Shown one piece after another: positions 3,580 to 55,199 of a DNA stretch of 64,000 bases. The notes under the pieces are model-generated. The model did not search any database and had not been told where the DNA came from. It saw only the letters and a program-made list of their open reading frames with translations. This stretch comes from an uncultured Pseudomonadales bacterium (GTDB lineage: Bacteria; Patescibacteriota; Microgenomatia; UBA1400; PJMF01). How positions within the stretch are numbered: the first letter of the stretch is position 1; each line of letters opens with the position of its first letter. Location of the stretch: the NCBI GenBank assembly GCA_964433225.1, contig CAYSQA010000002.1, forward strand, positions 8,642-72,641, written 5' to 3'. The translations under genes were made by a program, and so were the position numbers.

Positions 3580-3647
3580 ATTTTCAATTACCTAATGACC
3601 CACAGGTGATAGGAAGTCTATCACCTGTGCTTCAATTTTTATTCGGA

Positions 3648-10884: not shown

Positions 10885-12093
10885 GTGCAATCATCTTTAT
10901 TAAAAAAAGCTGCTAAGATTGACCAGTCGGCAGCTGATATTTCTTTATATGATTCTGCTTTTCAACATACCACCAGTAATAATTTGCCTTTTTTGGTAAC
11001 AGCAGAGACTTTTCATTTGGCTGAAGATGAAAAAAATAAGTTATTAGCCTTGGGCCCAGCTCTTAAGGAATTATTAAATCAAGCTGCTGCTTTGTATCAG
11101 AAGCCTTTTAACACTTTTTTTATTAGGCCAGACGTTTTGATGACCGCTGATGGGTTGAAAGTTTGTGAAATAGAAACTCAACCATTTGGTTTGGCTTTAA
11201 TAATTTTTTTACAAACTTCTTATCGTGAGTGGACTAAGGTGCTTGGTCAGGATGTTAGATATATTTTTACTGGTTTTATGCAGTGGTGGCAACAAAGTAC
11301 TGGCACAAATCAAGGAATTTTTGTTTATTCAGATCATACTGATCGTTTTAAAGGTCAGTTGGTTTATTTGGCCAATAGTTTGAAGCAGTATGGTGGTGAT
11401 TTTTCGGTTAGATTTATTGAAGATCTCACGGTTGAAGAAATTCAAAACAATTTTTTTTATCGTGCTTTTTATACTTATGAAGCTAGTTTAGATGAAGCAA
11501 TTAATAGATTTCTGCTTAGCAAACCAAAGCTATTTCCTCAGATAGATCCATATTTTGAAGGTAAGTATTTATTAGCTGATTATTTTGCTGATGATAATTT
11601 GCGAGCCAAATTATCTAGTGAAACAATAAAATTATTGGACCAGTTATTATTGCCTACTTGGTTTATTAAAAAATCAATTCCAGCTGAATTTCCTTTAACT
11701 ATTAAAAATTGGCTTGATTTAGTTAATTTTCCTAGAGAACAATTAAGGTTTGTTGTTAAAATGGCTGGTAATCACCCCGATGCTTCTTGGGCAAAAAGTG
11801 TTAACTTTTTACATAAAAAATCCAAAGTACAATTGAAGCAATTACTCCAATCTATTGAGGAAAGCAAACAGACTTGGTTGATTCAACCTTTTCTTAGTAA
11901 TAAAAAAGTAAGTATTACTTATGCCACTGAGGATTTTATGGACTTACTAATTATGAAAGGTCGAATTAGATTGACTCCATATTTCGAATATCAGACTGGT
12001 AAATTACTTAATGTAAAAGCAACGGTGAGAAGAAATACTTTGTTGATCCATGCTTCCAGTGATAGTGTTAATACCATTGTCAGTGACAACTAG
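10885..12093 (+). CDS. Hypothetical protein (possible ATP-grasp-like fold)
   Basis: Complete 402-aa ORF. The VCEIETQPFG segment weakly resembles the ATP-grasp (E-x-N) loop. No confident family. Confidence 0.5.
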   Translation: MQSSLLKKAAKIDQSAADISLYDSAFQHTTSNNLPFLVTAETFHLAEDEKNKLLALGPALKELLNQAAALYQKPFNTFFIRPDVLMTADGLKVCEIETQPFGLALIIFLQTSYREWTKVLGQDVRYIFTGFMQWWQQSTGTNQGIFVYSDHTDRFKGQLVYLANSLKQYGGDFSVRFIEDLTVEEIQNNFFYRAFYTYEASLDEAINRFLLSKPKLFPQIDPYFEGKYLLADYFADDNLRAKLSSETIKLLDQLLLPTWFIKKSIPAEFPLTIKNWLDLVNFPREQLRFVVKMAGNHPDASWAKSVNFLHKKSKVQLKQLLQSIEESKQTWLIQPFLSNKKVSITYATEDFMDLLIMKGRIRLTPYFEYQTGKLLNVKATVRRNTLLIHASSDSVNTIVSDN

Positions 12094-39631: not shown

Positions 39632-39925
39632 ATGACCAAGCGGTCTCTCCTCACGTTGGTTTCTTTGTTGCTCGCCTTCACCCTGGTGATTACTGGGTGT
39701 GGTGGAAGGGGAGACTCTGAATATCAACAGATGATGGGCGCTCTCGCAGTGGAGTGCATGGATGATGGAATGACTGGTCCTGCCTGTGAGCTGTACAATG
39801 CGCACAAGCAGGTGGAAGCAGCAGAGGCTGCTTTGCAGGTTGCTCAAGCGGCTTACGATGCGGCTCACGCACCCACTCCTGCTCCAACCAAGCAGGTCTC
39901 TCCATCAGCCACACCCTCTCGGTGA
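39632..39925 (+). CDS. Small lipoprotein, compositionally foreign (about 55% GC)
   Basis: Lipobox LVITGC. Ala/Gln/Pro-rich. GGAGG SD 5 nt upstream. Codon usage (CTC, GCC, CGG) is unlike the neighbouring genes. Confidence 0.55.
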   Translation: MTKRSLLTLVSLLLAFTLVITGCGGRGDSEYQQMMGALAVECMDDGMTGPACELYNAHKQVEAAEAALQVAQAAYDAAHAPTPAPTKQVSPSATPSR

Positions 39926-39946
39926 GCGGTGTTCATCATCAAAATA

Positions 39947-39981
39947 ATGCTCCACTTTTCTGAGAAAGACGAGTGGAGCAT
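39947..39981 (+). terminator. Hairpin ATGCTCCAC...GTGGAGCAT, putative terminator
   Basis: 9-bp stem with a 17-nt loop 21 nt after the 39925 stop, followed by TTATCTTT. Confidence 0.45.
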
Positions 39982-40037
39982 TTATCTTTAAGAAGCCTGG
40001 TTTATTATAAAACTTATAGAAATTTAGTCCTATAATA

Positions 40038-40066
40038 TTGACAAATTAGACATTTACTGCTATAAT
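40038..40066 (+). promoter_or_regulatory. Perfect-consensus sigma70 promoter TTGACA-N17-TATAAT
   Basis: Exact consensus hexamers with a 17-bp spacer. It predicts a roughly 390-nt leader before the 40467 ATG. Confidence 0.5.
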
Positions 40067-40466
40067 TTGACCTTGTATGAACTATTAAAAAACTTTTAAA
40101 AAAAGATCCCTAGCTCAAAGTCTTACCAGGATTTTGAGCTGAGGAGCTTTAATTGCTAATCAAGCACCGTGCTTGGCTTAAGCGAAAAAAACTTTTTCAG
40201 CATGGTAACTACTTTAAGTAGTTGCTCTTTAACAGGTGAGAAATTAATAACTTTTCTTTTTTATGGAAAAGAAGTTGCTGTGGTTTGTGACTCACTCAAA
40301 GAGAAACTTTATAGATATAGGTTTTTCTTTGAGTGAGTTAACCGGAGAAATCTGGTGAAACGATACCTCAACCCTACCTGGCCCCTCGTGATTGGGGGGT
40401 ACACCTACCTGAGCTCTGAGCACCTGGTCCGCTCTAAGCTCTTATAAAAAGAAAAGGAGGACCACC

Positions 40467-41183
40467 ATGAAACGTTTACTCGTTTTACTTCCCCTCGTTC
40501 TGTTGCTCTCTGCCTGCAATCCGGCTGCGGCCTGGGAAGCTCTTTGGAGCGACCCGGTTGCTGTAGTGGAAAATTGCTCCGGTACGACCTACGTTGACGG
40601 CCAACCCGTCAACTATAACGTCAAGCCGGGGTTCACGACCCACTATGGGCTGGATACTGCTACGCAGACCCGTTCTCTGAAGGTTGTGTGCGGTGAAAAC
40701 GGTGAGCTGGTCGGAGCCCCGACCCTCATTATCTTCTCAACCACGACCGAAGATGCGGTTTCAACAACAACCGGCTTCACCGATGCGATGCGCGCGGAAA
40801 ACAACCTTGTCAACCCGGCGCTGTTCGATGCCGATGACAATGCGGCTGGACATCCGGCTGGTTACCATGATATCGGAGTCAATCCCGGTCAAATTGGTAT
40901 CGTTTTCGGCTATCATCTGAAGTGGAATGGCTTTGATGCCATGGGTGGCGGATGCGACTTGGTCGTGTTGCCGCCCGGCTGGTACGAAAACTTCAGCATC
41001 GAAGATGGTCGCTATGAGGTGTACAACGTACCCTCTAGCGACTATGAAGGCTGGGTCGAAGTGCTGGTTTCCCAGCGGGTTAAAGAACAGGCTGAGCACT
41101 ACGCTTGCCCTACTACGGATTACCACGTTCGCGTGTTCACCGCAGACCCGTTGAAGAACTCCGCTTGGACCATCTGGCGGTAA
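40467..41183 (+). CDS. Lipoprotein of unknown function, compositionally foreign (about 55% GC)
   Basis: Signal peptide plus lipobox LLSAC. AAAGGAGG SD. The GC content is high enough that four overlapping alternative-frame ORFs appear in the track. Confidence 0.6.
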   Translation: MKRLLVLLPLVLLLSACNPAAAWEALWSDPVAVVENCSGTTYVDGQPVNYNVKPGFTTHYGLDTATQTRSLKVVCGENGELVGAPTLIIFSTTTEDAVSTTTGFTDAMRAENNLVNPALFDADDNAAGHPAGYHDIGVNPGQIGIVFGYHLKWNGFDAMGGGCDLVVLPPGWYENFSIEDGRYEVYNVPSSDYEGWVEVLVSQRVKEQAEHYACPTTDYHVRVFTADPLKNSAWTIWR

Positions 41184-41271: not shown

Positions 41272-42180
41272 ATGTTTATTAATAATAAAATTATGAAAAA
41301 GCAGACAAGAACTAATCAACTTATTTCAATAGTAATGCCTGTTTATAATGCAGAATTGTATTTAGTGGAATCACTTAAAAGCATTATTAATCAGACTTAT
41401 TCTAATTGGGAGCTAATTGTTGTAGACGATTGTTCTACTGATAAATCTTTTCAAATTTTAAATAAATTTGCCCAAAAAGATAACAGAATCAAGGTTTTCA
41501 AAAATAAAAAAAGACTTGGTGTGGCTGGTACTGCTAATTTTGCCTTGAAAAAAGCCAACTCTAAGTTAATAGCTAGAATGGATGCTGATGATATCATGCA
41601 TCCTCAAAGACTAGAAAAACAAAGATTATTCTTATTAGAGAATAAAGATGTGGGATTGGTGGGAACTCAATGTGTTTTAATTAATAAAAGTGGTAAAAAA
41701 ATTGGTTATAAGTATTTTCCTACCAGTAATCAAGATATTTATAGAATGATTTTTCATTCAATTCCTATTCAGCAACCAACAGCCATGTTTAACTTGAATG
41801 TTTTGAACAAGAATATCTTGTTATATGACCAAAATAAAACCACTGCAGAGGAAGTTGAGGTTTTATTCAGAATTTTAACTTCTGTTAAAACAGCTAATCT
41901 GCCAGATGTATTGTTGTCATATCGTTTACATGGAGAAAATACTTCTTTAAAGAATCCTAAAAAAACTTTTTATTCTACGTTTTTGACTAGATTTAAAGCT
42001 ATTACTGAATATGGTTATGTTCCTTCTTTTACTGGTTTTGTGTTAAATTTAATGCAATTGGTTTTCATTAGTGTTTTACCAGGGAAATATATTACTCCTG
42101 TTTACTATTTTTTAAGAGTTTTAATTGGGAATGGAAACACTCCTATTAAGAACCTTGGTTTTTCTTCTATAATGCACTAA
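41272..42180 (+). CDS. Family 2 glycosyltransferase
   Basis: ISIVMPVYNAELYL...ELIVVDDCSTDKS GT-A signature and a DAD motif (RMDADD). Confidence 0.8.
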   Translation: MFINNKIMKKQTRTNQLISIVMPVYNAELYLVESLKSIINQTYSNWELIVVDDCSTDKSFQILNKFAQKDNRIKVFKNKKRLGVAGTANFALKKANSKLIARMDADDIMHPQRLEKQRLFLLENKDVGLVGTQCVLINKSGKKIGYKYFPTSNQDIYRMIFHSIPIQQPTAMFNLNVLNKNILLYDQNKTTAEEVEVLFRILTSVKTANLPDVLLSYRLHGENTSLKNPKKTFYSTFLTRFKAITEYGYVPSFTGFVLNLMQLVFISVLPGKYITPVYYFLRVLIGNGNTPIKNLGFSSIMH

Positions 42181-42182
42181 GA

Positions 42183-45100
42183 GTGCGAAAAATAAGAAAT
42201 TTTTTACTTGTGTTTTGGCCAGTTTTTCTGCTAGGTTTTTTTTCTAGTTTGGTTTTATTTTTAAATTATCAGCCGAGTACTTGGTTATTAGGTTGGGACA
42301 ATCTAGTTCCAGAATTTAATTTTTCATTAAATCTGAAAAGAGCTTTGTTTTCTGCTTGGCAAGAATATCAAGGTCTTGGTTTGGCTGGAGGAATGGCTCA
42401 TGGGGCTTCTCTTTCTAGAGAAATTATTTTGTGGCCATTGTCTTTATTTATTCCTATGAGTTTTATTAGGTATTTTTGGACTGGATTGATGTTAATAATT
42501 GGTCCAATTGGATTATGGTTTTTAACTAATTTTTTATTGAATCAAAAAGATAAACATAGGAACTTTCAATTAGCCAGTTTTATCGCTGGTATTTTTTATC
42601 TCTTTAACTTAGCAACTCTTCAATATTTTTACCCACCATTTGAAACATTTTCTGGCTTTTTTGGGTTTTTCCCTTGGTTAGTTTTTTCTAGCTTAAAGTT
42701 TTTAACTACTAATAATAGAAAATCAGCTTTTAAGTTATTAATAATTTCTTTTTTGTCAACTTCTGCTTTTCAAGTTCAAACTATGTTTGCCGTTTATGTA
42801 TTGGTTATGGTCACATTTTTGCTTAACTTTATTTTTAGTAGTGGATCTTTTAAAAAAATACTTGGCTGGATATTTATTACTTTAATTGCAAATTTATTTT
42901 GGTTAATTCCAGTTGGATATTTTACTTTTTTTCATAGTTCAACAAATATAGAGGCTAAACAAAACCAATTGGCTACTTCTGAAGTGATTTTAATGAATCA
43001 AAATTATGGTGATTGGTCTGATATTTTATCTTTACGTGGCTATTGGTTTGATTATTTAGATAAAAATGAAGATGGTAACTTAGTTTATTTATTAACTCCA
43101 TGGATAAACTATTTAGATGAATCTTTGCTTTGGATAATTAGAGGAATTGTAATTAGTGGTTTGTTAGGTTCAATTGTTTTTTCAGTAAGTTGTCGTAAAA
43201 AGTATTTTTCTTGGTCTCTACTATTATTATGGGTTTTAATCTTTTTACTTTTAACTGCTGGTAAAGAGCCACTTGGTTTTATTTATCAGTTTTTTGAAAA
43301 ACATATTCCACTTTTTAGTCAAATTTTTAGAACGACTTTTACTAAGTGGTCAATGGCTTTTGTTTTAGTTATTTCAATTGGTTTGGCTGTGATTTTTGAT
43401 TTAATTTATCAAAAAATATTTAACTGGTTGAAGCCAGTTTTAGTTACTTTGGTTGCTTTTTTAATCGTTGTACCAGTTTTTCCTTTTTTTCAAGGTCAGC
43501 TTATCTATCAAAGAATGAAGGTTAATTTGCCTGCAGAATACTTGCAGCTATTTAGTTTTTTTGATCAACAACCAAAACAGTCAAGAATAGCTTTATTACC
43601 AGCAGAGTCTGTTTTTGGGTGGGATTTTTACGCTTGGGGATATAGAGGTAGTGGTTTTTTATGGTATGGAATAGAACAACCACTTTTATCTAGAGCTTTT
43701 GATGTTTTTTCAAAAACAGACGAGAATTTTTATCACCAATTTTCAGCAGCTCTCAGAGCAAATGATAGTAATCAGATTGGTGGTATTTTGGATTTGTATG
43801 ATGTTGATTATTTATTTTTGGACAAAAATATTGTTACAAATACTGGTTTTATTGATTATGAAAACCTTATAAAAGCCTTATCTTGGGAGTTGGTTTTTAC
43901 AGAAAATAATCTTTATGTTTGGCAGCGACCAGAATTAAGTAATTCTTTTGTTAGAGTTAATTCTTCTCTGGATTTTGTTAGTATTGATAATAGTTTTCAA
44001 GCAAGACTGCTTCCAGATTATATTAATCATTCCATTAAGCCATTAAATCAAGAACCGTTTTTAGAGTTACCTTTTATTGATTTAACCAAACAGGAGATTG
44101 ATAGTGTTGATTTTCATCAAAATGTTGTGTCATTTTCTAGAAAAATCAGTCAAACTGGTAAATTTAAACTTTATTTTCCTGCTTGGAAAGAAAAAGATCG
44201 AGTGGTAGTTTTTGCTAAACTAAAACTAAATGATGGGGTGATAACGATTAAATTTGCCCCGACTGCTAGACTTAGAGTCGCTGGTCAAGAGTTTTTGTTA
44301 CCTAGTTTAGGTAGTTACAAAATAGATTATGCTTTAGGTAAAAACATCGAGAAAGTTGTTTTAGATATTAATGATCAAAACTTAGTTTTAATTGAGGGTA
44401 AGGAAATTGATGTACCATTTTTTGACCTGGTTGTTGGTGAACCAATTAATTTATTAGTCAACGAGGTTATTGGTGGTAGTGAAGAAAGAGGCCTGTTTTT
44501 AAAAAGTGGTGGAGGTCTCAACTTAGAAATTGATTCTAATGTTTGGCGAGACTGGTTATCTGAATCAACTTTTGATTTTCAATTAACTGAAAGTAATCAA
44601 ACCATAACAGTAGATATTCCATCTTTTTCTTTAGACTTAATTGATTATTTAAAGTTTTCTGAAAATGAAACAAACTGTGATGTTTTTGATCGGGGGAATG
44701 TTAAGAAAAAAATTAATGATGATTCAATTAGTTATCAAACTAGTGAATTTGGTACTTTTTGTGAAAGTTTAAAACTAACTGATATTGATACTAATTATGA
44801 TTTTTTAGTAAGAGTTGAGGGAGAAAGTTTTAACGGTCGTTCTCCCAAGTTTTTAGTTACTAGTGCTACTGATAATTTCACCTATTTAGAGAATTTATTA
44901 TCTGACAAAAAATTTAAAGCTAATTATTTATTTTTGGCACAACCTTTTGAAAAAGAAAATTATTTTATTAATTTTGAATTCAAATCTTTTGGAGAAGTTT
45001 TAACAGAAGCAAAGTTAAACCAACTTGAGTTGTTTTATTTATCTTTACCAATAAAATCATTGAGTAGTTTATATTTAAAACCAACAAACTATCAACAGTT

Positions 45101-45446
45101 TGAAAATGAGACGGTTATTGATCAAGTGAGTAAATTTGGAACATCTTTTTACAAAGTTAATATTAACGTTGAAACAACTAATGGTTTTATTTATTTATCT
45201 CAGAGTTTCGACAAGTTCTGGGTTGCTTTATCTTTTAATAATGGATTAAAAATTTATCCACATTATGTTTATAAAAACTGGGCCAATGGTTGGTTGGTTG
45301 ATCATGGCCAACATCAAATTTACTTGATTTATTTACCTCAACTATTGGTTTTATTAAGTTTGTTTGTTTTAGTTGTTAGTTTAATTATTTTATTTCCTAA
45401 AAAGAAAAAAGCTAATCAAGAATTATTAGATTTTGTTGAAGAATAA
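42183..45446 (+). CDS. Large polytopic membrane protein with C-terminal extracytoplasmic domain (possible GT-C-type transferase), GTG start
   Basis: 1087 aa. About 12 TM segments in the first roughly 500 aa, then a large soluble region and a final TM anchor. The start is GTG at 42183, as in the ORF track. Confidence 0.55.
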   Translation: MRKIRNFLLVFWPVFLLGFFSSLVLFLNYQPSTWLLGWDNLVPEFNFSLNLKRALFSAWQEYQGLGLAGGMAHGASLSREIILWPLSLFIPMSFIRYFWTGLMLIIGPIGLWFLTNFLLNQKDKHRNFQLASFIAGIFYLFNLATLQYFYPPFETFSGFFGFFPWLVFSSLKFLTTNNRKSAFKLLIISFLSTSAFQVQTMFAVYVLVMVTFLLNFIFSSGSFKKILGWIFITLIANLFWLIPVGYFTFFHSSTNIEAKQNQLATSEVILMNQNYGDWSDILSLRGYWFDYLDKNEDGNLVYLLTPWINYLDESLLWIIRGIVISGLLGSIVFSVSCRKKYFSWSLLLLWVLIFLLLTAGKEPLGFIYQFFEKHIPLFSQIFRTTFTKWSMAFVLVISIGLAVIFDLIYQKIFNWLKPVLVTLVAFLIVVPVFPFFQGQLIYQRMKVNLPAEYLQLFSFFDQQPKQSRIALLPAESVFGWDFYAWGYRGSGFLWYGIEQPLLSRAFDVFSKTDENFYHQFSAALRANDSNQIGGILDLYDVDYLFLDKNIVTNTGFIDYENLIKALSWELVFTENNLYVWQRPELSNSFVRVNSSLDFVSIDNSFQARLLPDYINHSIKPLNQEPFLELPFIDLTKQEIDSVDFHQNVVSFSRKISQTGKFKLYFPAWKEKDRVVVFAKLKLNDGVITIKFAPTARLRVAGQEFLLPSLGSYKIDYALGKNIEKVVLDINDQNLVLIEGKEIDVPFFDLVVGEPINLLVNEVIGGSEERGLFLKSGGGLNLEIDSNVWRDWLSESTFDFQLTESNQTITVDIPSFSLDLIDYLKFSENETNCDVFDRGNVKKKINDDSISYQTSEFGTFCESLKLTDIDTNYDFLVRVEGESFNGRSPKFLVTSATDNFTYLENLLSDKKFKANYLFLAQPFEKENYFINFEFKSFGEVLTEAKLNQLELFYLSLPIKSLSSLYLKPTNYQQFENETVIDQVSKFGTSFYKVNINVETTNGFIYLSQSFDKFWVALSFNNGLKIYPHYVYKNWANGWLVDHGQHQIYLIYLPQLLVLLSLFVLVVSLIILFPKKKKANQELLDFVEE

Positions 45447-45480: not shown

Positions 45481-47172
45481 ATGAAGTGGTTAGTAAAGAT
45501 ATTTTTTTATTGTTGGTTGGTTCTTTTTGCTCCAGCAAAAAATATTTTTGCTAATGATAAATGGCTTGAAGTAAATCCTGATCCAGCTGTAATTTGGCAG
45601 GAAAATGATGAGTTGATTACTGGTTTGATGGAGCAACCTATTGGCAATAGTTTTTTGCTAACTAATAATGATTTTTTTCCAACTACAGATAATTTTGTTT
45701 GGCAGTTTACCTTTACCCCTCAACAGGGCAATGATCATAATTTTGTGTGGGGTTTTATCGATGAAAACAACTATTATCAACTTCATTTTGCGACTGGTTC
45801 GATTTGGGTTAATCGCTTTATAGCTGGTCAGGAAATGTTGGCCAAGGGAATTAATTTCGCTTGGCAACAACAACAGGCTTACCAATTGAAAATTGCTAGA
45901 GAAAATGGTTTATTAAGTATTTTTTTGGATGGTTATGAAATTTTTCATTTTGCCGATTGGACTTATGATCCTTTGACTAGTGTTGGGAGTTGGGGTTTTA
46001 AATTAGCAGCAGGCAGTGTTTATCCAGTTGAAACAACAATCAAAGAGTTGAAGTTTTTGGATCACAACTTTTTTGTTTTGCCGGTGACTCAAATTTTTCA
46101 GACTGATCCTTTGTGGTCAGCTAGTATTTATGATCAGGCTGAGAGTTGGTCTAGTCAGCCGACGATCGGTCGTTGGGGTTGTGCTTTAACTTCAGCAGTG
46201 ATGATTCTCAATTTTCATGGTTTTAATTACTTACCTAATGGTCAGGTTTTGGATCCTGAATCACTAAATCAGTGGTTAAAAATTCAGGCCGATGGTTACA
46301 TCGCTGATGGTTTAGTGAATTGGTGGGCAATAACAAGGTTAACTAAGCAATTGGCTGCCCAAGATTTGGTTTTGCCCAAGCTAGAGTTTTCAGTCGTTAC
46401 AGAACATTGGCCAACAACAGCTGAGCTATTAATTCGATCTAGAGTACCGGTAGTTGCTCAAGTTCCTGGTCATTTTGTGGTGTTTTATGGTTTTGATCAG
46501 GACAATCATGATTTTTTAGTTAATGATCCATTGGTTGGTCAGCGAAAAACTGTAGATTATCAGCAGATTAACTCACTTAGAGTTTTTCAACCTAGTTTTA
46601 CTGATTTGAGTTATTTAGTAGTAGTGCATCACCCTCTAACAGAGGTAAGTATTCTTACTAACAATGGAGAGAAGATAGAAACAAGGCAACTTGTTGAACA
46701 GCTCACCACAGATCAGCCAGCAGTTTATTTTACGCTGGTGCCTAAACCAACAGAGCAAGATTACCTAATTGAATTTAGTAACTTAACTCCTGATTTTTCA
46801 CCAACAATTTATGCTTATGATGAGACGGGCGAGGTGAGTTTATTAAATGTGAAAAAAAATACTTTTGCTCAACAAAAAATTAAGCTAAGTTTTAAAAAAA
46901 ATCAGCCAGCCATTTTTCAATTTTTATTTAGTTGGCATGAGTTTTTAAAGTTGGTTGATGATTTTTGGAGGCAGCAGCTAATTTCAGAAAAAATGAAGAC
47001 TAGAGTTGAAGAACGAGTTCAGTTAATTGATCAAGCAGTAACTCACCAGGACAAACTTCGACAAGAGCTTTATTTGAAAAATTTACTGGTTTTTTATCAA
47101 AATTTTTTTGACCACTCCGTAATAGCTCAATTACAAACTATGTTTTTTGAGCTAACATCTCTTGGAGAGTAA
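45481..47172 (+). CDS. Secreted protein with papain-like (C39-like) cysteine peptidase domain
   Basis: Signal peptide. The candidate catalytic Cys lies in QPTIGRWGCALTSAVMIL and the His in PGHFVVFYGFD, resembling Peptidase_C39-like domains. The N-terminal roughly 200 aa may be lectin-like. Confidence 0.5.
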   Translation: MKWLVKIFFYCWLVLFAPAKNIFANDKWLEVNPDPAVIWQENDELITGLMEQPIGNSFLLTNNDFFPTTDNFVWQFTFTPQQGNDHNFVWGFIDENNYYQLHFATGSIWVNRFIAGQEMLAKGINFAWQQQQAYQLKIARENGLLSIFLDGYEIFHFADWTYDPLTSVGSWGFKLAAGSVYPVETTIKELKFLDHNFFVLPVTQIFQTDPLWSASIYDQAESWSSQPTIGRWGCALTSAVMILNFHGFNYLPNGQVLDPESLNQWLKIQADGYIADGLVNWWAITRLTKQLAAQDLVLPKLEFSVVTEHWPTTAELLIRSRVPVVAQVPGHFVVFYGFDQDNHDFLVNDPLVGQRKTVDYQQINSLRVFQPSFTDLSYLVVVHHPLTEVSILTNNGEKIETRQLVEQLTTDQPAVYFTLVPKPTEQDYLIEFSNLTPDFSPTIYAYDETGEVSLLNVKKNTFAQQKIKLSFKKNQPAIFQFLFSWHEFLKLVDDFWRQQLISEKMKTRVEERVQLIDQAVTHQDKLRQELYLKNLLVFYQNFFDHSVIAQLQTMFFELTSLGE

Positions 47173-47752
47173 CGCTGTCTCGGTCTCTCTGAGAAATAAT
47201 CATTTGTTCTTTAGTAATTGGCCATTGAATGTTTAATTCTGGATCAAAAATCGATAGGGCTTTATCACCACTGGGATCTCGATCTTCATAAAAAGCATCG
47301 ACCACATAGTGGTAAAGGAGCGGGCCTTCTATAGCGCAAACTGAGTTAGCCACTCCTTTGGGAATATAGAGAGCAGTACCCTTGTCAGAGTTTTCATCAT
47401 TATCGAATAGAAAATACTCAACTTTTTTAAAAGTTGGTGAGTTGGGTCTAATATCTGCTAGGGCAGAAAACCCTTTACCAGTAAAAGTGGTCACTAATTT
47501 ATTCCAGCCTTCAGCGTGCAATCCTCGGACAACATTAGTTTTGGAAGAAGCCAAGTTAATTTGTTTGAGCTCCATTTTTTTACCAAGTACTTTTTCTAGG
47601 TTTTTCAGGCCAGTAATATCAGCAAAGAAACCTCGATCATCTTGGAATTTTTTGTACTCAAGATAAAGCAGACCATCAATAGTAGTGTGATAAATACCGG
47701 GAGCAATTTCTCGATCAGCACTAGGCTTATAAACAGCAGGCATGTTAGACAT
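47138..47752 (-). CDS. dTDP-4-dehydrorhamnose 3,5-epimerase-like cupin (RmlC family)
   Basis: RGLHAEGW and the surrounding cupin pattern are typical of RmlC-like sugar epimerases. It overlaps the 45481 gene end convergently by 35 nt. Confidence 0.65.
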   Translation of the reverse strand: MSNMPAVYKPSADREIAPGIYHTTIDGLLYLEYKKFQDDRGFFADITGLKNLEKVLGKKMELKQINLASSKTNVVRGLHAEGWNKLVTTFTGKGFSALADIRPNSPTFKKVEYFLFDNDENSDKGTALYIPKGVANSVCAIEGPLLYHYVVDAFYEDRDPSGDKALSIFDPELNIQWPITKEQMIISQRDRDSVTLQEMLAQKT

Positions 47753-47852
47753 GTAATTCCCTTCTATTGGTTGTAAGATTGTCTACACTTTTTTTGTCAC
47801 AAGACGTGGTAAAATCCTTGTCGTCATAGTTTAACATACTTGGGGAAAGTAT

Positions 47853-49064
47853 ATGTTTGAAAAACCACCATTTTTATCACCAGCAGTCTTAAAAAAATAT
47901 GCCGATGTTTTGGTTAATTTTGCCCTAAATTCTGGTCAAGGAGTTAAGGCCGGTGAAGTAGTGAGGTTAGTAGTGCCTGATGTGGCCAAAGCTTTAGCTT
48001 TGGAATTACAGAATGCAGTTTTAAAAGCAGGTGCTCACCCAATGATGCGGTTTTTACCAACTGGTTTTGACCGTGATTTTTATACTCTGGCTAATGAAGA
48101 ACAATTAACTTTTTTTCCTAGAAAATTCAGCAAAGTTCAAGTTGATTTGATTGATCATACTTTGGGTATTTTGGCCGATCCTGAACCAGCAGAACTGGCT
48201 GAGGTTGATCCCAAGAAAATTATTTTAGCGCGTGATTCCAAAAAAGCTCTGAGAGACTGGATGGATGCCAAAGAACAAGCTGGTAAATACACTTGGACAA
48301 TTGGCTTGTGGGGTGTTGAGGCCAAAGCCAAAGAAGTCGGTCTAACTTTGAAAGAATATTGGGAGCAAATTATCAAAGCTTGTTATTTGGACAAAGAGAA
48401 TCCAGTTGCAGAATGGAAAAAAATTGCCCAATTTCAGGAAAGAGTGAAGACTGTTTTAAATGACATGCAGATAGAGTATGTGACTGTTAAAGGTCAAGAT
48501 CTAGATCTTCGAGTGAGGATCGGTGAGAAACGTCGTTGGCGTGGTGGTGAGGGTAGAAATATTCCTAGTTTTGAGATCTTTACTTCTCCAGATTGGCGTG
48601 GGACTGAAGGTTGGGTTAAGTTTAATCAGCCTCTTTATCGTTATGGGCAGATTATCAAGGGAATTGAAATGAAGTTTGAACGAGGTCATGTGGTGGCAGC
48701 TTCTGCTAAACAAGGTGACAGGTTTTTGCAAGAGATGTTAAAAAGTAATAATGCTGATAAGTTGGGTGAGTTCTCTTTGACCGATAAAAGAACTTCTAGA
48801 ATTACCCATGTGATGGCCGAGACTTTATTTGATGAAAATATTGGTGGTCCTTTTGGTAACACTCATGTAGCCATAGGTCGTGCTTACCGTGATTGCTATT
48901 TGGATGATCCCAGTAAGCTGACCGATGTGGAGTGGCAAGAATTAGGTTATAACGATTCAGCTGAACATACCGATATGGTTTCTACCACTGATAGGGTGGT
49001 GACTGCTTTCATGAAAGATGGATCCTCCAAAATAATTTACCGTGATGGGATGTTTACGGTGTAA
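47853..49064 (+). CDS. M29-family aminopeptidase (AmpS/PepS-like)
   Basis: N-terminal LKKYADVLVNFALNSGQGVKAGEVV signature of the thermophilic-metalloprotease M29 family. Confidence 0.7.
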   Translation: MFEKPPFLSPAVLKKYADVLVNFALNSGQGVKAGEVVRLVVPDVAKALALELQNAVLKAGAHPMMRFLPTGFDRDFYTLANEEQLTFFPRKFSKVQVDLIDHTLGILADPEPAELAEVDPKKIILARDSKKALRDWMDAKEQAGKYTWTIGLWGVEAKAKEVGLTLKEYWEQIIKACYLDKENPVAEWKKIAQFQERVKTVLNDMQIEYVTVKGQDLDLRVRIGEKRRWRGGEGRNIPSFEIFTSPDWRGTEGWVKFNQPLYRYGQIIKGIEMKFERGHVVAASAKQGDRFLQEMLKSNNADKLGEFSLTDKRTSRITHVMAETLFDENIGGPFGNTHVAIGRAYRDCYLDDPSKLTDVEWQELGYNDSAEHTDMVSTTDRVVTAFMKDGSSKIIYRDGMFTV

Positions 49065-49073
49065 AATAGGGTT

Positions 49074-49853
49074 ATGATTTTAACTTCATCACAAGAGATT
49101 GAAAAATACCAAGCTATCGCTAAATTATCGACAGATATTTTGTGGCAACTTCATCAATTTACTAAAGCAGGAGTGACACCTGTAGAGATAGATGCCTTGG
49201 CAGAAAAATTGGCCATGGAGACTGGAGCAAAACCTAACTTTAAAGGAGTCGGTGGTCCCCGCAATCCTTACCAGTATTCGACTTGTATCTCAGTCAATGA
49301 TACTGTGGTGCATGGTATTCCTCAGGATAAACCTTTGCAAACAGGTGATTTAGTCAAAGTTGATTTTGGGATTGAAAAGGATGGTTACAATACTGATCAT
49401 TGTTTTACGGTAGTGATTGGCGACTATTTATCTCCAGCAGATGAGCTCTTGATGAAGACTGGTCGTAAGGCAGTGCTAAAAGCTGCACAAGCTGCTAAAG
49501 CCGGAGTGAGGATTGGAGATCTTGGTTATCTTATGGAAACAACAGTGGTGGAACAAGGTTTTACAGTAGCAGAACAATATGTTGGACATGGGATTGGTCA
49601 AACCTTACATGATGAACCGCAACTTCCGGCCTGGGGTGACCCAGGAACTGGAGCTAAGCTTCGTGAAGGGATGGTGGTTTGTGTCGAGGCCCAAGTGATT
49701 GCTGGAAACAATGATTTGTATGTTGATGCAGATGGTTGGTCAGTCAAAACTCGTGATGGTTCAAGAGCGGTGATGTTTGAATATATGGTGCTAGTCGGCA
49801 AAGATAGTGCCAAAATTTTAACCCCGACTATGGATTGGCCATTGGTCAAGTAA
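49074..49853 (+). CDS. map: Methionine aminopeptidase type I
   Basis: Pita-bread metal ligands are present in VVHGIP, DFG and DHCFTV, and in the YVGHGIG, HDEP and VCVEAQV blocks. Confidence 0.9.
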
Positions 49854-49914
49854 TTTTTGTCAAGTTTTTCCTACTCTGGCTTCTTTGACTTTTGTGTGTA
49901 TAATTATACATCTT

Positions 49915-51186
49915 ATGACCGCAAAAACTGCAAAAAAAGCTTCAACCGAGATTGCTAAAAAAGAAATTAAAGCTAGTAAAAAACTAGTAAAAAAAATAGT
50001 CAAAGAAACTAAAGCAACGGCAGCCAAGCAAGTTGAAGAATTGGCAGAAGATAATGGGGTCACTACTCCATTTATTTTTCTTCCTCAACAAGAAGAAAAA
50101 AAACTACCAGCTAAAACTCAAGAACAGGTAGAGGCCTTATTCAAAAAAGCCAAAAAACAAGGTTACGTTACCCAAGAAGAAATCTTGGATGTATTTGTTG
50201 AGCCAGAACTTTACTTGGAACAGTTAGATGATTTTTATGATGATATTGTTAAAGCAGACATTGATGTATTTGAAGCAGTTTCCGAAACTAAAGAGGAAGA
50301 AGATAGTGACGAATTACAACAAGAATTAGATTTACTTAGCAGTTTGAAGAATACGGGTGTAGCTGATCCAGTCAGAATGTATCTTAAGGAGATTGGTCGG
50401 ATTCCGTTGCTCAATCGTGAACAGGAAATTCGTTTAGCTCAAGAAGTAGAGGCCGGGAGTGACAAAGCCAAACAAAAATTAATCGATGCCAATTTGAGAT
50501 TAGTTGTTTCTATTGCCAAAAAATACATTGGTCGTGGGATGACTTTTTTGGATTTGATTCAAGAAGGTAATAAAGGTTTGATTAGAGCAGTCGAGAAATT
50601 CGACTGGACCAAAGGATTTAAGTTTTCGACTTATGCCACCTGGTGGATTCGTCAGGCTATTACTCGTTCCATCGCCGATCAAGCTAGAACCATTCGTATC
50701 CCAGTTCACATGGTGGAAACCATCAACAAGCTGATGAGAACGGCTCGTCGCTTGATGCAAGATCTCGGTCGTGAGCCGACCCCAGAAGAAATTGGTGAAA
50801 AAATGGAGATGGAACCGGAAAAGGTTCGTGAAATCTTGAAGATTTCACAAAACACTACCTCTTTGGAAACTCCAGTCGGTGATGGCGAAGACGATAGCAT
50901 TTTGGGTGATTTCATTGCTGATGACAAACAAATTTCTCCATATGAGGCCACTAGTAAACAAATGTTGCGTGAAAACATCGAGGAAGTATTGAGTGCTTTA
51001 TCCGATCGTGAGGCTAAAGTTTTGAAGATGAGATTTGGTTTACAGGGTAATAAAACCATGACTTTGGAAGAAGTTGGTAAGAAGTTTGGGGTGACCCGTG
51101 AACGGATTCGTCAAATCGAGGCAAAAGCCCTGCGTAAGCTCAAACATCCAAGTCGCAGAAAGAAGTTGCAAGACTTCTTAGAATAG
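49915..51186 (+). CDS. rpoD: RNA polymerase primary sigma factor (RpoD/SigA)
   Basis: Region 2 [18 protein letters not shown]...[10 protein letters not shown] and region 4 [27 protein letters not shown]. The start at MTAKTAKK (49915) is preferred because an extended -10 TGTGTATAAT sits just upstream inside the ORF-track extension. Confidence 0.9.
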
Positions 51187-51211
51187 ATATAATACTGAGG
51201 TTCTTTATTAT

Positions 51212-51283
51212 TCCCCTGTAGCTCAGCGGCAGAGCAGGAAGCTGTTAACTTCAAGGTCGTAGGTTCGAATCCTACCGGGGGAG
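51212..51283 (+). tRNA. tRNA-Asn (anticodon GTT)
   Basis: Manual fold: acceptor TCCCCTG/CGGGGGA, D stem GCTC/GAGC, anticodon loop CTGTTAA, T arm GTAGG-TTCGAAT-CCTAC. Confidence 0.85.
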
Positions 51284-51359
51284 CACCTTTATTTTTCTCA
51301 AGAACAATATCCTAATAACTCAAGACCATTCTGTGGAGGGTTGAACTCTTGTTATAATT

Positions 51360-52058
51360 TTGTATATGAAAAACAAGTCTACAATTTACGCGAAGAATTC
51401 TGATGGTATTTATAAAATTATTCATATTGAAGTTAAAGAAGATGATTCGCTACATATTTATTTTCCTAGAAAGAATGGATATTTTGTTAGAAGCAAACAA
51501 GATATTGACTTAGGTGGTTTCAAAAGTAAAAAATTTACTTTTGAAAGTAATATAAAAGGTCATGTTTATGAGCCTTACTTTAGTTATCACCCAGGTAAGA
51601 GTGTGGTGCATTTTAATGCAAAAGATTCAATTGGTAACAAAATTCCTTTTATTAAAGATAGACGAAGTTCAAATATAAAAGATTTAATTGATAATGAAGA
51701 GTTTGCGCCCTTAATGACAATTGTTATTCCACCAAAAATGAATGTTTTTGATAAAGTTACATCTTTAAGAAAACACAATCTACTATTAAATGTTCCTAGA
51801 AATCATGTGGCTTTATCACTAGAAATTCTAATCCATGGAAAAGGTGGATATGTAGATAAAGATAATCTGCCTTTTAAAGAAAAAAGAAATGTTTCTTTTA
51901 TTTGTCATTTAAATGACAAATTGACTAATAATTTGTCATATACACTTGTTTTGAACAATATCTTAATAGAATCTGAAAATGATATCCCTTCTGAAATTTT
52001 TGCTATAGCCTGGAATCAGGAAATGCCTATAGGTATTTCTCTTTCTGCTAATAATTAA
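51360..52058 (+). CDS. Hypothetical protein in AT-rich island
   Basis: Complete 232-aa ORF with no signal peptide and no recognised domain. The true start may be the third codon (MKNKST). Confidence 0.5.
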   Translation: MYMKNKSTIYAKNSDGIYKIIHIEVKEDDSLHIYFPRKNGYFVRSKQDIDLGGFKSKKFTFESNIKGHVYEPYFSYHPGKSVVHFNAKDSIGNKIPFIKDRRSSNIKDLIDNEEFAPLMTIVIPPKMNVFDKVTSLRKHNLLLNVPRNHVALSLEILIHGKGGYVDKDNLPFKEKRNVSFICHLNDKLTNNLSYTLVLNNILIESENDIPSEIFAIAWNQEMPIGISLSANN

Positions 52059-52134
52059 ACAAAACAGTTCTTTACTTCCTCAATAATTGGGAGTTAACCC
52101 ATGATATATCCCAATAAATACACAGAAATAGAGG

Positions 52135-52160
52135 CTAGAACTTCTTCTAGTCTGGTTTTT
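52135..52160 (+). terminator. Rho-independent terminator (CTAGAA-CTTC-TTCTAG followed by a T-run)
   Basis: 6-7-bp stem with a tetraloop, followed by TCTGGTTTTT, between the two island genes. Confidence 0.45.
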
Positions 52161-52174
52161 ATTGGTCATTTAGA

Positions 52175-53188
52175 ATGGTTATAAACATGATTCTTGAAAC
52201 AATATCACTAAATAAATTTATCGAAAAGGTGCTCGGCATCTATGTCCAGCTGAATAGAGAAGGTTTAGATGGAATCATTAAAGACAGGGTAATTTATTTA
52301 AAACACTTAATAGAGAAGGATAGATTGGATAACTTAATTACAGAAGACCTAATACCACTATTTAAAGTAATTTTTGACGCGCAAGTTTTGGTAGGTTCTT
52401 CATACTCCTTTGATTCTTTTTCCATTTCAGACATCAGTTTGTTCGGATTGAAAGATTTGAAGAATTTGAATAGGGATCAACAAGAAGATTGGCTGATGCA
52501 AATGAAAATCCAATCGTGGTTACACTATAGGGGGATTCCACCACTCAATGATTTGAAGAGCATTGTTAAGCACAGTGTTTGCGAATATCGGTTTGATTTT
52601 TCGTCTCAAAAACATCTTGTGGAGTGTAAAAATCTTCACATGGGAGGCTCTAAAAATTCTGATGTACTGATAAATAAAATACTTGCGAAAATAGATCAAA
52701 ATCAGTTGAACAAAACTGAAGAAGGTTTTAGTACAAATGCCTTTAAAACAATGTACCTTGACATAAGTGATTATATAAAAAAAGACAACTTATCCACAAT
52801 TTCCAAATATGATATTGAGATAAATGTTCCTAATATGACATTTATGTCTAAATTAAGTGATGATATTAACCATTATGTTTTTAATACAAAAAAGGCTTCA
52901 CAGATCGATAATTTGGTTTTATGTTGGCATGAGTTTTATAAATTTAATGGCCAAGTAATAGTATTACTTTACAATTCAGCACAATTTGGTAAAAGAAGTA
53001 ACCTTATATTTGATGGGTTAGCCTTAGAAATGTTCCCTATGAAAGATAAAAGAGGTATTTTTAGTGAGATAAGATTTAAAACTAATTTCTCCAATAAAGA
53101 TTATCCTGCAGAAATCCGTACAACTCTTAACATGTTACTAAGTCCTGAAGCTTTTTTTGTGGTATCAGATGAGGAGAAATCTATATAA
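52175..53188 (+). CDS. Hypothetical protein in AT-rich island
   Basis: Complete 337-aa ORF, cytoplasmic, with no recognised domain. Confidence 0.5.
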   Translation: MVINMILETISLNKFIEKVLGIYVQLNREGLDGIIKDRVIYLKHLIEKDRLDNLITEDLIPLFKVIFDAQVLVGSSYSFDSFSISDISLFGLKDLKNLNRDQQEDWLMQMKIQSWLHYRGIPPLNDLKSIVKHSVCEYRFDFSSQKHLVECKNLHMGGSKNSDVLINKILAKIDQNQLNKTEEGFSTNAFKTMYLDISDYIKKDNLSTISKYDIEINVPNMTFMSKLSDDINHYVFNTKKASQIDNLVLCWHEFYKFNGQVIVLLYNSAQFGKRSNLIFDGLALEMFPMKDKRGIFSEIRFKTNFSNKDYPAEIRTTLNMLLSPEAFFVVSDEEKSI

Positions 53189-53231
53189 AACATTCCCTAA
53201 TTTTGTCTACAACATGGAGCACTTACAGTAT

Positions 53232-54785
53232 TTATTCTACGGTAGCTTCATATACGCTAACATCATCAGATAGTTTATATTCATTGACAATTTTTCCGTA
53301 TTTTTGTCTATTCCACCAATCTACTAATAATTGTTTATAGATCGGTTTTTCAACAATGAAAAATATTTTTTCTGCTGGTCCTATTTGTGTAGAACTAGAA
53401 AAATATTTCATTAAATCTGGTTTTTGAACTACATAGTTGGGTATATTTGGTTGATAGGCAAAATCTATTGGCAGTTTTTTTCCATTAATGGCTTGATAAA
53501 AGTATAGATATTGATAAGAAAAATCATAAATATCTGGGACATATTGATATGAGGCAAATGGTTTTCCGTCTGCTTTTTCGTAAATTAAATTAATGGCTTG
53601 TTGTTTTATTGGTAAGAATTCTCTGCTATTTGCATATTTACCATTTAATGTTGAGAAATATTGATAAGTTGATAGAAAACTAGATGCTATAAGTAAAATT
53701 ATCAATATAAATGAATAGTTTTTATTTATTTTTTTCAAGAAATCAACAAAGAAAACTACAGCTACTGGCATTAAACCAAATAAATACCAGAAGTTATAAT
53801 GTGTTAAAAATAACCAAATGTCAGTAATAATAAACCAGGCAGTAAATTCTAAAAAATATTTATTCTTATTTGTTTTTTTCCAACGCCAAGATTTCCAAAT
53901 GATTAGTATTAAAACTATTAAGCCCAGGTAGGTTTCTATTTTGCTTTGAAAAAAATTGGGTAATAAACTTTGTCTAACTTCAATAAGTGATTGAGTCAAT
54001 ACATTGAAAATAGATGGTTTAACACCTTGTTCAATGTTGACTTGTCCAGTTAGGTAAGCTAATACCCCCTTAACTTCAGAAAATTCATGTCTTAATTCAA
54101 AAACTAACTGAGGTAAAAATGGAATGAAAAATCCACTACAAATGAAAATTATTTTTCTTAAAGACAATTTAATGTTTCTAATTTTGAGACTGATAAAAAC
54201 TAATAATGGATAAAGGACCGCAAAAGCCGTAGAAAAGTGAAAACCACTGGCCATTAAAAAACCCAGACTCAACCAATAAAATCTTTCCTTAATTTTTGAT
54301 TGTTTTTTTTCTTCCAACTTTTTAAAAACTACTAGAATGAGCCAGGTTACTAATGTTAGCGGGAATGGATTCCAAGCACTAGTTGTTACCATAAACCATA
54401 AAGGTGTAGAGGTAAAAATTAAGGCAGCCATAAAACCAAAATATTTATTAATTAACCATAGTTGGAAAATACCTAGCAACATAATGGTTACAACACCAGC
54501 AAGAGGATGGAAGTTAGTTAATAAAAACCCCGGTGCCAATAAGTAGTACCAACCTGGACCAAAATATAATCCTGGGATACTAGTCCAGGGTCCAATTAAT
54601 TTTGGAGATTTGTTTAAGATCATATCCATGACAGCCAAGGAATCTTTTCCATGATCAAAACCAAATGGAATTACACCATATAAAATTATTTGAAATCTAG
54701 AGAGTAAATAAAGAAATAGTAGTATAAAAAATTTATTCAAAGACTTATTATTTTGTAAAAATTTTTTTTTAATTAATTTAATCAT
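53232..54785 (-). CDS. GT-C-fold glycosyltransferase-like polytopic membrane protein (ArnT/PMT-like)
   Basis: About 12 TM segments with an early FGFDHGKD acidic motif. It is a paralog-like relative of the 28261 gene. Confidence 0.6.
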   Translation of the reverse strand: MIKLIKKKFLQNNKSLNKFFILLFLYLLSRFQIILYGVIPFGFDHGKDSLAVMDMILNKSPKLIGPWTSIPGLYFGPGWYYLLAPGFLLTNFHPLAGVVTIMLLGIFQLWLINKYFGFMAALIFTSTPLWFMVTTSAWNPFPLTLVTWLILVVFKKLEEKKQSKIKERFYWLSLGFLMASGFHFSTAFAVLYPLLVFISLKIRNIKLSLRKIIFICSGFFIPFLPQLVFELRHEFSEVKGVLAYLTGQVNIEQGVKPSIFNVLTQSLIEVRQSLLPNFFQSKIETYLGLIVLILIIWKSWRWKKTNKNKYFLEFTAWFIITDIWLFLTHYNFWYLFGLMPVAVVFFVDFLKKINKNYSFILIILLIASSFLSTYQYFSTLNGKYANSREFLPIKQQAINLIYEKADGKPFASYQYVPDIYDFSYQYLYFYQAINGKKLPIDFAYQPNIPNYVVQKPDLMKYFSSSTQIGPAEKIFFIVEKPIYKQLLVDWWNRQKYGKIVNEYKLSDDVSVYEATVE

Positions 54786-54893
54786 AAATAAAGATTAGTA
54801 AAATTATATAACAGAACGGCACGAATATTCTTTTCAGGAAGTTTGTAAATACTATTTTCATTTAGTGAATAGTTAATGCTATAATTTTTAGCT

Positions 54894-55199
54894 ATGTCCC
54901 CAAATCCCCTAATTAATGCTCTCAGTGCAGCTGCTTATATTTTTTCGGTTGTGACGATAATGAATTTTGTTACTCAACCGCTTAGAGATAAACCAGATAC
55001 ATTTTTTGCACCGATCATGGTTCTATTTATGCTAACACTTTCGGTGGTTATAATGGCTTTTTTATTTTTTTACCAACCACTTTTACTTTTTATTGAGGGA
55101 AAGAAAAAACAAGCAGTAAACTTATTTGTAAAAACTGTTGGAATTTTTGCTATTTTTACCATTATTGTTTTATTGATGTTTTCAGTTGGGATTTTTTAA
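54894..55199 (+). CDS. Small three-TM membrane protein
   Basis: 101 aa, almost entirely hydrophobic helices. Confidence 0.4.
   Translation: MSPNPLINALSAAAYIFSVVTIMNFVTQPLRDKPDTFFAPIMVLFMLTLSVVIMAFLFFYQPLLLFIEGKKKQAVNLFVKTVGIFAIFTIIVLLMFSVGIF

Follow-up and report, generated by a model that had tools for sequence, protein, structure and literature searches.

A two-cassette islet behind tRNA-Asn in an integration hotspot of Patescibacteria, with candidate conflict genes

What lies downstream of tRNA-Asn

The window considered here is a stretch of 64,000 nucleotides from contig CAYSQA010000002.1, which belongs to a member of the Patescibacteriota of the Pacebacteria/Microgenomates type. Its subject is a 1,936-bp segment lying directly behind a tRNA-Asn gene that itself follows the sigma factor gene rpoD. 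The segment carries just two genes, called A and B, and is present in the window but missing from L007 (the prefix L marks a numbered locus of another genome), the closest species representative among the relatives retrieved with the RpoD protein of the window as the query. The initial annotation, made from the letters of the DNA alone, had placed an insertion of about 1.9 kb right after this tRNA, and the empty site in L007 now gives that insertion its exact length. The tRNA was located with ARAGORN and Rfam RF00005, and the families of A and B were sought in Pfam, NCBIfam, PADLOC, and PHROGs. The features of the locus are collected in Table 1.

As called, the two plus-strand open reading frames (ORFs) after the tRNA span 51360-52058 (232 aa, with a TTG start) and 52175-53188 (337 aa). 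Alignments of homologs and database entries favor starts at 51366 for A and 52187 for B, and the gap between the two genes is 116-128 bp, depending on the start of B. The early description of two proteins without recognizable domains stands, since neither finds a match in the family libraries, and only the sizes change, to 230 and 333 aa. Exact-sequence look-ups of both proteins, made for either start, returned nothing. The position of an extended -10-like element just upstream of gene A suggests that its mRNA would be leaderless or nearly so. When four recombinases or integrases of relatives served as tblastn queries, no remnant of such an enzyme was found in the window, and the ORFs of A and B contain no recombinase domains. 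Also, there is no methyltransferase in 51287-54890, so the cognate methyltransferase that stands beside the endonuclease in a Type II restriction-modification system is lacking. The 517-aa membrane protein encoded next to the segment has no match in Pfam or PDB.

Table 1. Features of the tRNA-Asn locus in the window and recombinase genes at the same tRNA in relatives
Feature	Sequence	Position	Strand	Basis or remark
rpoD (sigma-70), conserved left anchor	window	49885..51186	+	protein identity 98% to L007, 74-88% to other Pacebacteria-type genomes
tRNA-Asn(gtt), intact, integration target	window	51212..51284	+	ARAGORN; Rfam RF00005, 64.5 bits
Left direct-repeat copy GGAGCAC, attL-like	window	51280..51286	+	last 4 nt of tRNA and 3 nt of trailer
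1,936-bp segment with cassettes A and B and right repeat copy, missing from L007	window	51287..53222	+	blastn; GC 0.298
TGTTATAAT, extended -10-like promoter element	window	51350..51358	+	7 nt upstream of the ATG of A; by sequence inspection
Gene A, 230 aa, predicted all-beta	window	51366..52058	+	family of 7 proteins
B cassette (upstream hairpin, gene B, 32-bp tail)	window	52102..53220	+	DNA common to L001
Palindromic hairpin AGGCTAGAAC TTC TTCTAGTCT, then T-run	window	52132..52163	+	5' end of B cassette
Gene B, 333 aa, candidate PD-(D/E)xK-type nuclease	window	52187..53188	+	family motif
Right direct-repeat copy GGAGCAC, attR-like	window	53216..53222	+	comparison with L007
517-aa multi-pass membrane protein, second variable cargo of the hotspot	window	53232..54785	-	GC 0.284; comparison of relatives
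101-aa small membrane protein, conserved right anchor	window	54894..55199	+	homologs (64-75% identity) right of the variable interval in L007, L008, L009, L002
Large serine recombinase gene	L010	11701-13233		ends about 30-40 nt inside tRNA-Asn
Large serine recombinase gene	L011	11398-12933		ends about 30-40 nt inside tRNA-Asn
Large serine recombinase gene	L015	11767-13299		ends about 30-40 nt inside tRNA-Asn
Large serine recombinase gene	L024	12179-13933		ends about 30-40 nt inside tRNA-Asn
Large serine recombinase gene	L002	3642-5356		ends about 30-40 nt inside tRNA-Asn

The empty site and its breakpoints

The flanks of the segment are about 94% identical to L007 at the nucleotide level and align with it in blastn as two blocks. 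Window 47000-51285 corresponds to L007 7116-11401 (94%), and window 53216-53370 corresponds to L007 11396-11550 (95.5%), the second block overlapping the first by 6 bp in L007. Synteny with L007 picks up again at window 54987. The presence/absence comparison proposed in the initial annotation finds its answer here, in a genome without the segment whose flanks are 94-95.5% identical.

The 7-bp sequence GGAGCAC occurs as a direct repeat at 51280-51286 and 53216-53222, and the two copies coincide with the breakpoints that L007 defines. With a slash marking the breakpoint, the left junction in the window reads ...CCGGGGGAGCAC/CTTTATT... and the right one reads ...ACAT GGAGCAC/TTACAGTATTTATTC..., while the junction in L007 is ...CCGGGGGAGCAT TTACCATATTTATTC..., where the only copy of the repeat, in the form GGAGCAT, is joined straight to the right flank. 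The breakpoint at 51286 is 2-3 nt beyond the end of the tRNA, which is left intact. The chance of GGAGCAC appearing at a fixed position is about 2e-5, as calculated from the base composition of the window. A search for a repeat of the tRNA 3' end near 53190-53230 had been suggested, and the right copy of GGAGCAC, which matches that end, falls within this range. The accompanying statement that neither an integrase nor a repeat remnant could be seen holds for integrases and recombinases but not for the 7-bp repeat. No tRNA-derived repeat longer than 7 bp rises above chance in the window or its relatives. Of the hallmarks of tRNA-targeted islands, the locus has insertion at the 3' end, tRNA-derived repeats, and presence/absence polymorphism; an integrase or recombinase of its own is the one it lacks.

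Insertion of foreign DNA directly downstream of tRNA-Asn is strongly supported by the empty site in L007, the repeat of the tRNA end, the patchy and nonsyntenic distribution of the homologs, and the fact that the site is a hotspot. The two outcomes that had been named as speaking against an islet, conserved synteny of both genes across the lineage and a match to metabolic enzyme folds, were not found. The source is evidently a contig of a metagenome-assembled genome, with both proteins recorded on a single 117-kb contig at NCBI, and an insertion seen in such a source could be an artefact of assembly or binning. This is extremely improbable, because both flanks are collinear with L007 on one contig, the junctions are clean, and the tRNA is intact; chimeric joins seldom yield an insertion with synteny restored on both sides.

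The same breakpoints can be read in the opposite direction. The segment would then be ancestral to the clade of the window and L007 and would have been precisely deleted in L007 between the 7-bp repeats, and its genes would have accessory roles outside defense, for example in the interaction of an episymbiont with its host. Loss between short direct repeats gives just such a single-copy junction, and the adjoining gene at 53232-54785 is clearly truncated in L007, so DNA has been lost at this spot. Genomes of the candidate phyla radiation are also rich in lineage-specific ORFans. However, A and B are found at this site in no other relative, their homologs lie in unrelated mobile or defense contexts, and B shows transfer at the DNA level between distant genomes. 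We regard deletion in L007 as unlikely, and even so the segment would still have been acquired, only earlier, with timing alone being changed.

A second and separate replacement adjoins the A and B indel, with window 53371-54986 standing opposite L007 11551-12739. Here, all that L007 retains of the 517-aa membrane gene is its last 45 codons, next to the tRNA, the rest being replaced by a 337-aa methyltransferase-like ORF. The initial annotation had taken this gene (53232-54785) for the next conserved one, a claim that fails, as the gene is also missing from L008, L009, and L010. Farther to the right, an SHMT-like gene (window 55243-56466) has an in-frame TAA at 55546-55548 where L007 has a Ser codon within an intact 407-aa ORF, and the interrupted gene is either a pseudogene or the product of a sequencing error.

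An integration hotspot between rpoD-tRNA-Asn and the 101-aa gene

The end of the island had been set at 53230, but low GC and variability both reach about 54890, and the true variable interval extends from tRNA-Asn to 54890. Its content is different in every relative examined. For example, L007 has the methyltransferase-like ORF; L008 has a TauE exporter, a methyltransferase, and a GT2-YdjC gene; and L009 has three unknown ORFs with an ABC-F gene. L010 carries a large serine recombinase gene and, after it, a Type I restriction-modification system that is complete (hsdR, hsdS, and hsdM). The same interval thus holds varied cargo across relatives, which is what marks a hotspot. A tRNA-Asn lies at most 1.5 kb downstream of rpoD in 14 of the 36 related loci, and rpoD-tRNA-Asn is a lineage-wide integration hotspot of Pacebacteria-type Patescibacteria. 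Recognized defense systems at the site are confined to relatives, namely the Type I system of L010; none is seen in the window, where A and B have no PADLOC match.

In four of the relatives (L010, L011, L015, and L024), the 3' part of tRNA-Asn is entered from the opposite strand by the end of a large serine recombinase gene, and L032 has a remnant of such a gene. These genes suggest a recombinase lineage specialized for the tRNA-Asn downstream of rpoD in Pacebacteria/Microgenomates genomes. In L002, rpoD is followed by an intron-split tRNA-Asn, into whose 3' end a recombinase gene runs, and then by an island of 16 kb and a homolog of the 101-aa gene.

The tRNA-Asn of L002 (3036-3682) is itself unusual, with an anticodon loop split by an intervening sequence of about 570 bp, which is why ARAGORN misses it. 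The insert holds a group I intron (Rfam RF00028, 100.5 bits, E 1e-26, 3343-3633) and an ORF of 110 aa (3113-3445).

Two independent cassettes

The initial annotation had treated A and B as a two-gene unit, and the comparison of loci takes this unit apart. Their pairing recurs nowhere else: six A loci are without B, and 16 B-family loci are without A. Searches with hidden Markov models among the neighbors found no second B-family member and no homolog of A, and no partner gene is common to the 16 B-family loci. A and B are two independent single-gene cassettes rather than a functional pair. One could still imagine a two-component module, such as a toxin-antitoxin or sensor-effector system that works only when paired, since the genes adjoin on the same strand, came within one insertion, and are separated by little more than 100 bp. 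This is highly unlikely given that A and B are together in no other locus and that the edge of the B cassette at 52102 falls between the genes, with a hairpin of its own upstream of B.

The B cassette can be delimited by comparing DNA. Window 52102-53220 and positions 9913-11034 of L001 (GCA_964718215.1, CBAIMI010000001.1) share 83% identity over 1,123 bp, and homology is lost at the right GGAGCAC. Within the Pacebacteria, L001 is only distantly related, with flank proteins 63-75% identical to those of L008 and L009. The synonymous divergence (dS) between the B genes of the window and L001 is 0.80, similar to the dS of 0.69 between the rpoD genes of the window and L007. Because B is hardly more diverged from a distant genome than rpoD is from a near neighbor, B must have moved horizontally. 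The ratio of nonsynonymous to synonymous divergence (dN/dS) is 0.12 for B against L001 and at most 0.3 for A, which points to purifying selection on each, and both are therefore real, selected genes.

The hairpin between the genes was first described as their own terminator. A hairpin with a T-run is indeed present at 52132-52153, but the hairpin is kept upstream of the B homolog in L001, where the A gene is absent, and so the hairpin belongs to the B cassette and is not the terminator of A. In L001, it sits between B and a divergent helix-turn-helix (HTH) gene. Shuffled sequence yields a mean of 1.7 terminator-like sites, about as many as the two present in 4.2 kb here. At the 5' end of the B cassette, the structure at 52132-52163 acts either as an insulating terminator or as an operator.

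In L001, the block that ends with B encodes a Type ISP restriction-modification enzyme and also includes SIR2 (Dsr1-like) and HEPN genes. The tail of the B cassette there (11025-11040) contains GAGCCAAGT, which equals the tRNA-Asn 3' end and trailer of L011-type genomes. This match was noticed post hoc, and no tRNA lies within 10 kb; the sequence may be an old attR or due to chance. The tail hints that B habitually resides at the distal end of tRNA-Asn islands. The idea that a GGAGC-like core follows every cassette was also considered; it is true of B in the window and in L001 and fails for the A homologs in L005, L006, L087, and L088.

Gene A, a rare protein predicted to be all-beta

Only seven members of the A family were found among 5.8 billion clustered proteins, and A has no meaningful match in Pfam, NCBIfam, PADLOC, or PHROGs. 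The structure model of A is all-beta and has no match to solved structures.

In L002, a homolog that is 45% identical to A lies in the recombinase island between rpoD and the 101-aa gene homolog, together with the PDC-S01 and DUF4238-Pers candidates. The homolog in L005 has MazG-like, Nhi/AbiO-like SLFN helicase, and DUF3800 (PDC-M04A) neighbors, the one in L006 has a Replic_Relax gene next to it, the one in L087 neighbors a PIF1-type helicase, and the one in L088 is found 37 nt downstream of a tRNA-Leu. A scan of viral contigs returned no loci of the A family. We infer that the product of A is all-beta and cytoplasmic and that mobile elements carry the gene, with defense, anti-defense, and element maintenance as its candidate roles.

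These contexts also bear on whether the islet is what decay has left of a larger recombinase island or prophage, with genes that would serve the element in anti-defense, exclusion, replication, or maintenance. Full recombinase islands do occupy the same tRNA in relatives, and homologs of A adjoin Replic_Relax, PIF1-type helicase, and recombinase genes. The sole structural hit of A is a viral protein, and B in L001 is at the distal end of a large island, with the tail of its cassette carrying the tRNA-Asn end and trailer of L011-type genomes. However, no remnant of a recombinase or phage gene can be detected in the window, A and B have no match in phage or plasmid records, and the viral-contig scan was empty for the A family and the closest B subfamily. 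Also, the tRNA repeat is 7 bp long, and a longer displaced fragment would be expected for a recombinase island. Altogether, decay from a larger element seems an improbable origin for the islet.

Gene B, a candidate nuclease

The close B family has three members, and an exhaustive profile search extends it to 44 cluster representatives. They are about 330-360 aa long or are fragments of the same architecture, and their contigs range in GC from 0.28 to 0.59, a sporadic and wide distribution. For ten B-family clusters, the source name was in every case either absent or "hypothetical protein." The motif residues were taken from an alignment of 40 sequences that are 20-80% identical. A helical region at the N-terminus and a beta-rich region at the C-terminus enclose a core with D122, C132-E133, E146-C147-K148, K164, Q173, and D192. 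D122, E146, and Q173 are invariant, and C132, L144, C147, K148, K164, D192, Y196, C246, W247, and G277 are nearly so. The family consensus can be written as KDLR ... VC(D/E)F ... LVECKRxHP ... KI......QL ... hhhDIS.Y ... TLCW.

The signature of PD-(D/E)xK nucleases is an acidic residue that ends one hydrophobic segment, an E-x-K in the next, and then a helix. In B, E146-C147-K148 follows 13 residues past D/E133, with E146 invariant and K148 present in at least 90% of the 40 sequences. The acidic residue and the (D/E)-x-K on the following strand are found at the level of the motif only, and on this motif B is probably a PD-(D/E)xK-type nuclease. The three conserved cysteines suggest a metal or structural site, which would be on the opposite face of the same sheet.

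The searches did not place B in a described nuclease family. None of the 40 members has a significant profile match to DUF4263, NERD, Mrr, or other Pfam or PADLOC models, with only weak matches of single members being seen, and a match to DUF4263 or to the PADLOC Shedu model, by which Shedu is recognized, is absent from all of them. Profile searches of PDB, whether by the full B family or by the core alone, gave only spurious matches to the influenza HA2 coiled coil.

Among 94 pooled neighbors of the B superfamily, PADLOC matches include Dsr1, Type IIG restriction-modification, DrmA, Type II methyltransferase, and ThsB. The close B subfamily has no loci in viral contigs and none in metagenome contigs, and when A, B, and two distant B relatives were compared by tblastn with phage and plasmid records, no match was found. 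At L113, a B-family gene appeared to replace DrmC in a DISARM-like operon; this candidate was rejected, as the composition shifts at the gene boundary and the apparent overlap is an ORF extension.

Base composition

The GC content of the insert is 0.298, compared with a mean gene GC of 0.367 (sd 0.055) in the window. Gene A (0.272) is the lowest gene of the window, and gene B has 0.308. The initial annotation had described the segment as lower in GC than its flanks, which is correct for the upstream rpoD (0.39) but not for the downstream side, where the 517-aa membrane gene is as AT-rich as the insert, and the low-GC zone is not sharply bounded. Similarly low GC is found elsewhere in the window, at 28-31 kb and 41-46 kb.

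Three other places in the window deserve mention. The region 41272-45446 is AT-rich (GC 0.284-0.288) and has ORFs of 302 and 1,087 aa, with a composition that resembles the islet. Close by, two ORFs at 39632-39925 and 40467-41183 have GC of 0.55-0.56 (0.54-0.62 at third codon positions, GC3) in a genome of GC 0.36; they have no Rfam match, the 238-aa product has no PDB sequence match, and the pair at 39632-41183 may be another foreign patch or an unrecognized RNA. Beyond the hotspot, 56492-57703 on the minus strand encodes a 403-aa protein with leucine-rich repeats and a protein kinase domain (Pfam LRR_8, 9e-16; Pkinase, 4e-10). This protein is 89% identical in L007 and L008 and has a eukaryote-like architecture in an episymbiont lineage.

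How the islet may have formed and what it may do

Overall, we consider it moderately probable that the segment is a horizontally acquired islet of conflict genes, made up of the A and B cassettes with B as a nuclease, in the lineage-wide tRNA-Asn hotspot. Here, 1,936 bp (51287-53222) are inserted at the extreme 3' end of tRNA-Asn with the 7-bp repeat on either side, and the B cassette has been transferred as a DNA unit of 1.1 kb between distantly related genomes. The insertion could have proceeded by site-specific recombination on a very short core, with a recombinase acting in trans or since lost, or by microhomology-mediated joining. The cargo would act as stand-alone conflict genes against phages or mobile elements. 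In B, D/E133 on one strand and E146-x-K148 on the next would together bind the catalytic metal, and the N-terminal helical and C-terminal beta regions may serve in sensing or target recognition. B would then cut invading DNA, or the DNA of its own cell in an abortive response. A defense role for A and B is plausible from their neighborhoods and the motif of B. The initial suggestion of a defense or toxin-like islet agrees with the mobile and defense contexts and with this motif, but no known defense family was matched.

Several observations weigh against this explanation. A and B match no known defense, toxin, or nuclease family in Pfam, NCBIfam, PADLOC, PHROGs, or PDB sequence profiles. The AlphaFold model of B, built from a three-sequence alignment, has a pLDDT of 45 with a core below 50 and is unusable, so the nuclease fold rests on the motif. 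For A, the sole structural hit is an unnamed viral protein at a TM score of 0.46-0.49, which is uninformative. Many neighbors of the B superfamily are housekeeping genes, and the association with defense is drawn from a listing of neighbors. The direction of the event, insertion here or deletion between the 7-bp repeats in L007, is also a matter of probability rather than of outgroup proof. Finally, the recombinase islands of relatives take in about 35 nt of the tRNA, whereas the junction here is at its last 4 nt; with this mismatch and no longer displaced tRNA fragment, the event cannot be attributed to the recombinases of the relatives.

Patescibacteria have tiny genomes with few recognized immune systems and are thought to be poor in classical defense systems. 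The locus is a precisely delimited example of accessory-gene exchange, with the site seen both empty and filled and with a junction of 7 bp, and it points to a lineage-wide rpoD-tRNA-Asn hotspot served by large serine recombinases. It also nominates A and B as candidate new families of defense or conflict genes that are rare, selected, and uncharacterized, B with a nuclease-like motif and A without a known fold. That B, A, or both are truly new defense or counter-defense families is a tentative proposal. The fuller picture, in which B founds an undescribed family of single-gene, cysteine-decorated PD-(D/E)xK defense nucleases spreading as a cassette of 1.1 kb, A is a new all-beta fold of mobile elements that acts in defense or counter-defense, and the site, with its recombinase islands, exchanges immune genes, is likewise doubtful for now; if true, rpoD-tRNA-Asn would be a dedicated site of immune-gene exchange in genome-reduced Patescibacteria.

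Comparison with known systems

Stand-alone defense nucleases of the PD-(D/E)xK type include Shedu SduA (DUF4263), NERD-domain proteins, and Type IV (Mrr-like) restriction enzymes. B resembles them as a single gene of about 330-360 aa with a central D/E...ExK followed by a helix and with variable flanking domains. Its sporadic occurrence, on contigs with a GC of 28-59%, and its frequent position beside restriction-modification or other defense genes are similar as well. B differs from Shedu, NERD, and Mrr proteins in that it has no profile match to them and that three near-invariant cysteines flank its motif, and the likeness is one of motif.

In the E. coli pan-genome, tRNA-adjacent islands and the integration hotspots of defense islands have been mapped (PMC10121019). 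The locus shares with the hotspots described there the insertion at a tRNA 3' end, the flanking repeat, presence/absence variation, changing cargo, and defense systems in relatives. Unlike them, the islet is only 1.9 kb long, has no integrase and a repeat of 7 bp, carries cargo outside the described defense families, and belongs to a Patescibacterium with a reduced genome.

In Prochlorococcus, tycheposons integrate successively beside tRNA genes by means of tyrosine or large serine recombinases and leave behind cargo and integrase-less remnants (bioRxiv 10.1101/2020.12.28.424599). A streamlined genome, an island beside a tRNA, and remnants without an integrase are common to both cases. Unlike tycheposons, the islet has a tRNA repeat of only 7 bp and no replication-module genes and is from a different phylum, and the recombinases of its relatives are all of the large serine type and end inside tRNA-Asn.

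Genomic islands have been predicted from composition in Patescibacteria too, one of them with a Type I restriction-modification system (PMC12455944). They belong to the same phylum, and L010 has hsdR, hsdS, and hsdM with a recombinase at the very tRNA studied here. That paper differs in having neither the tRNA-Asn hotspot nor the A and B families, and its text mentions no tRNA, integrase, or recombinase. Set beside these systems, the locus is a fairly ordinary islet that does not overturn current ideas, and it extends the familiar picture of tRNA islands and defense hotspots to the Patescibacteria.

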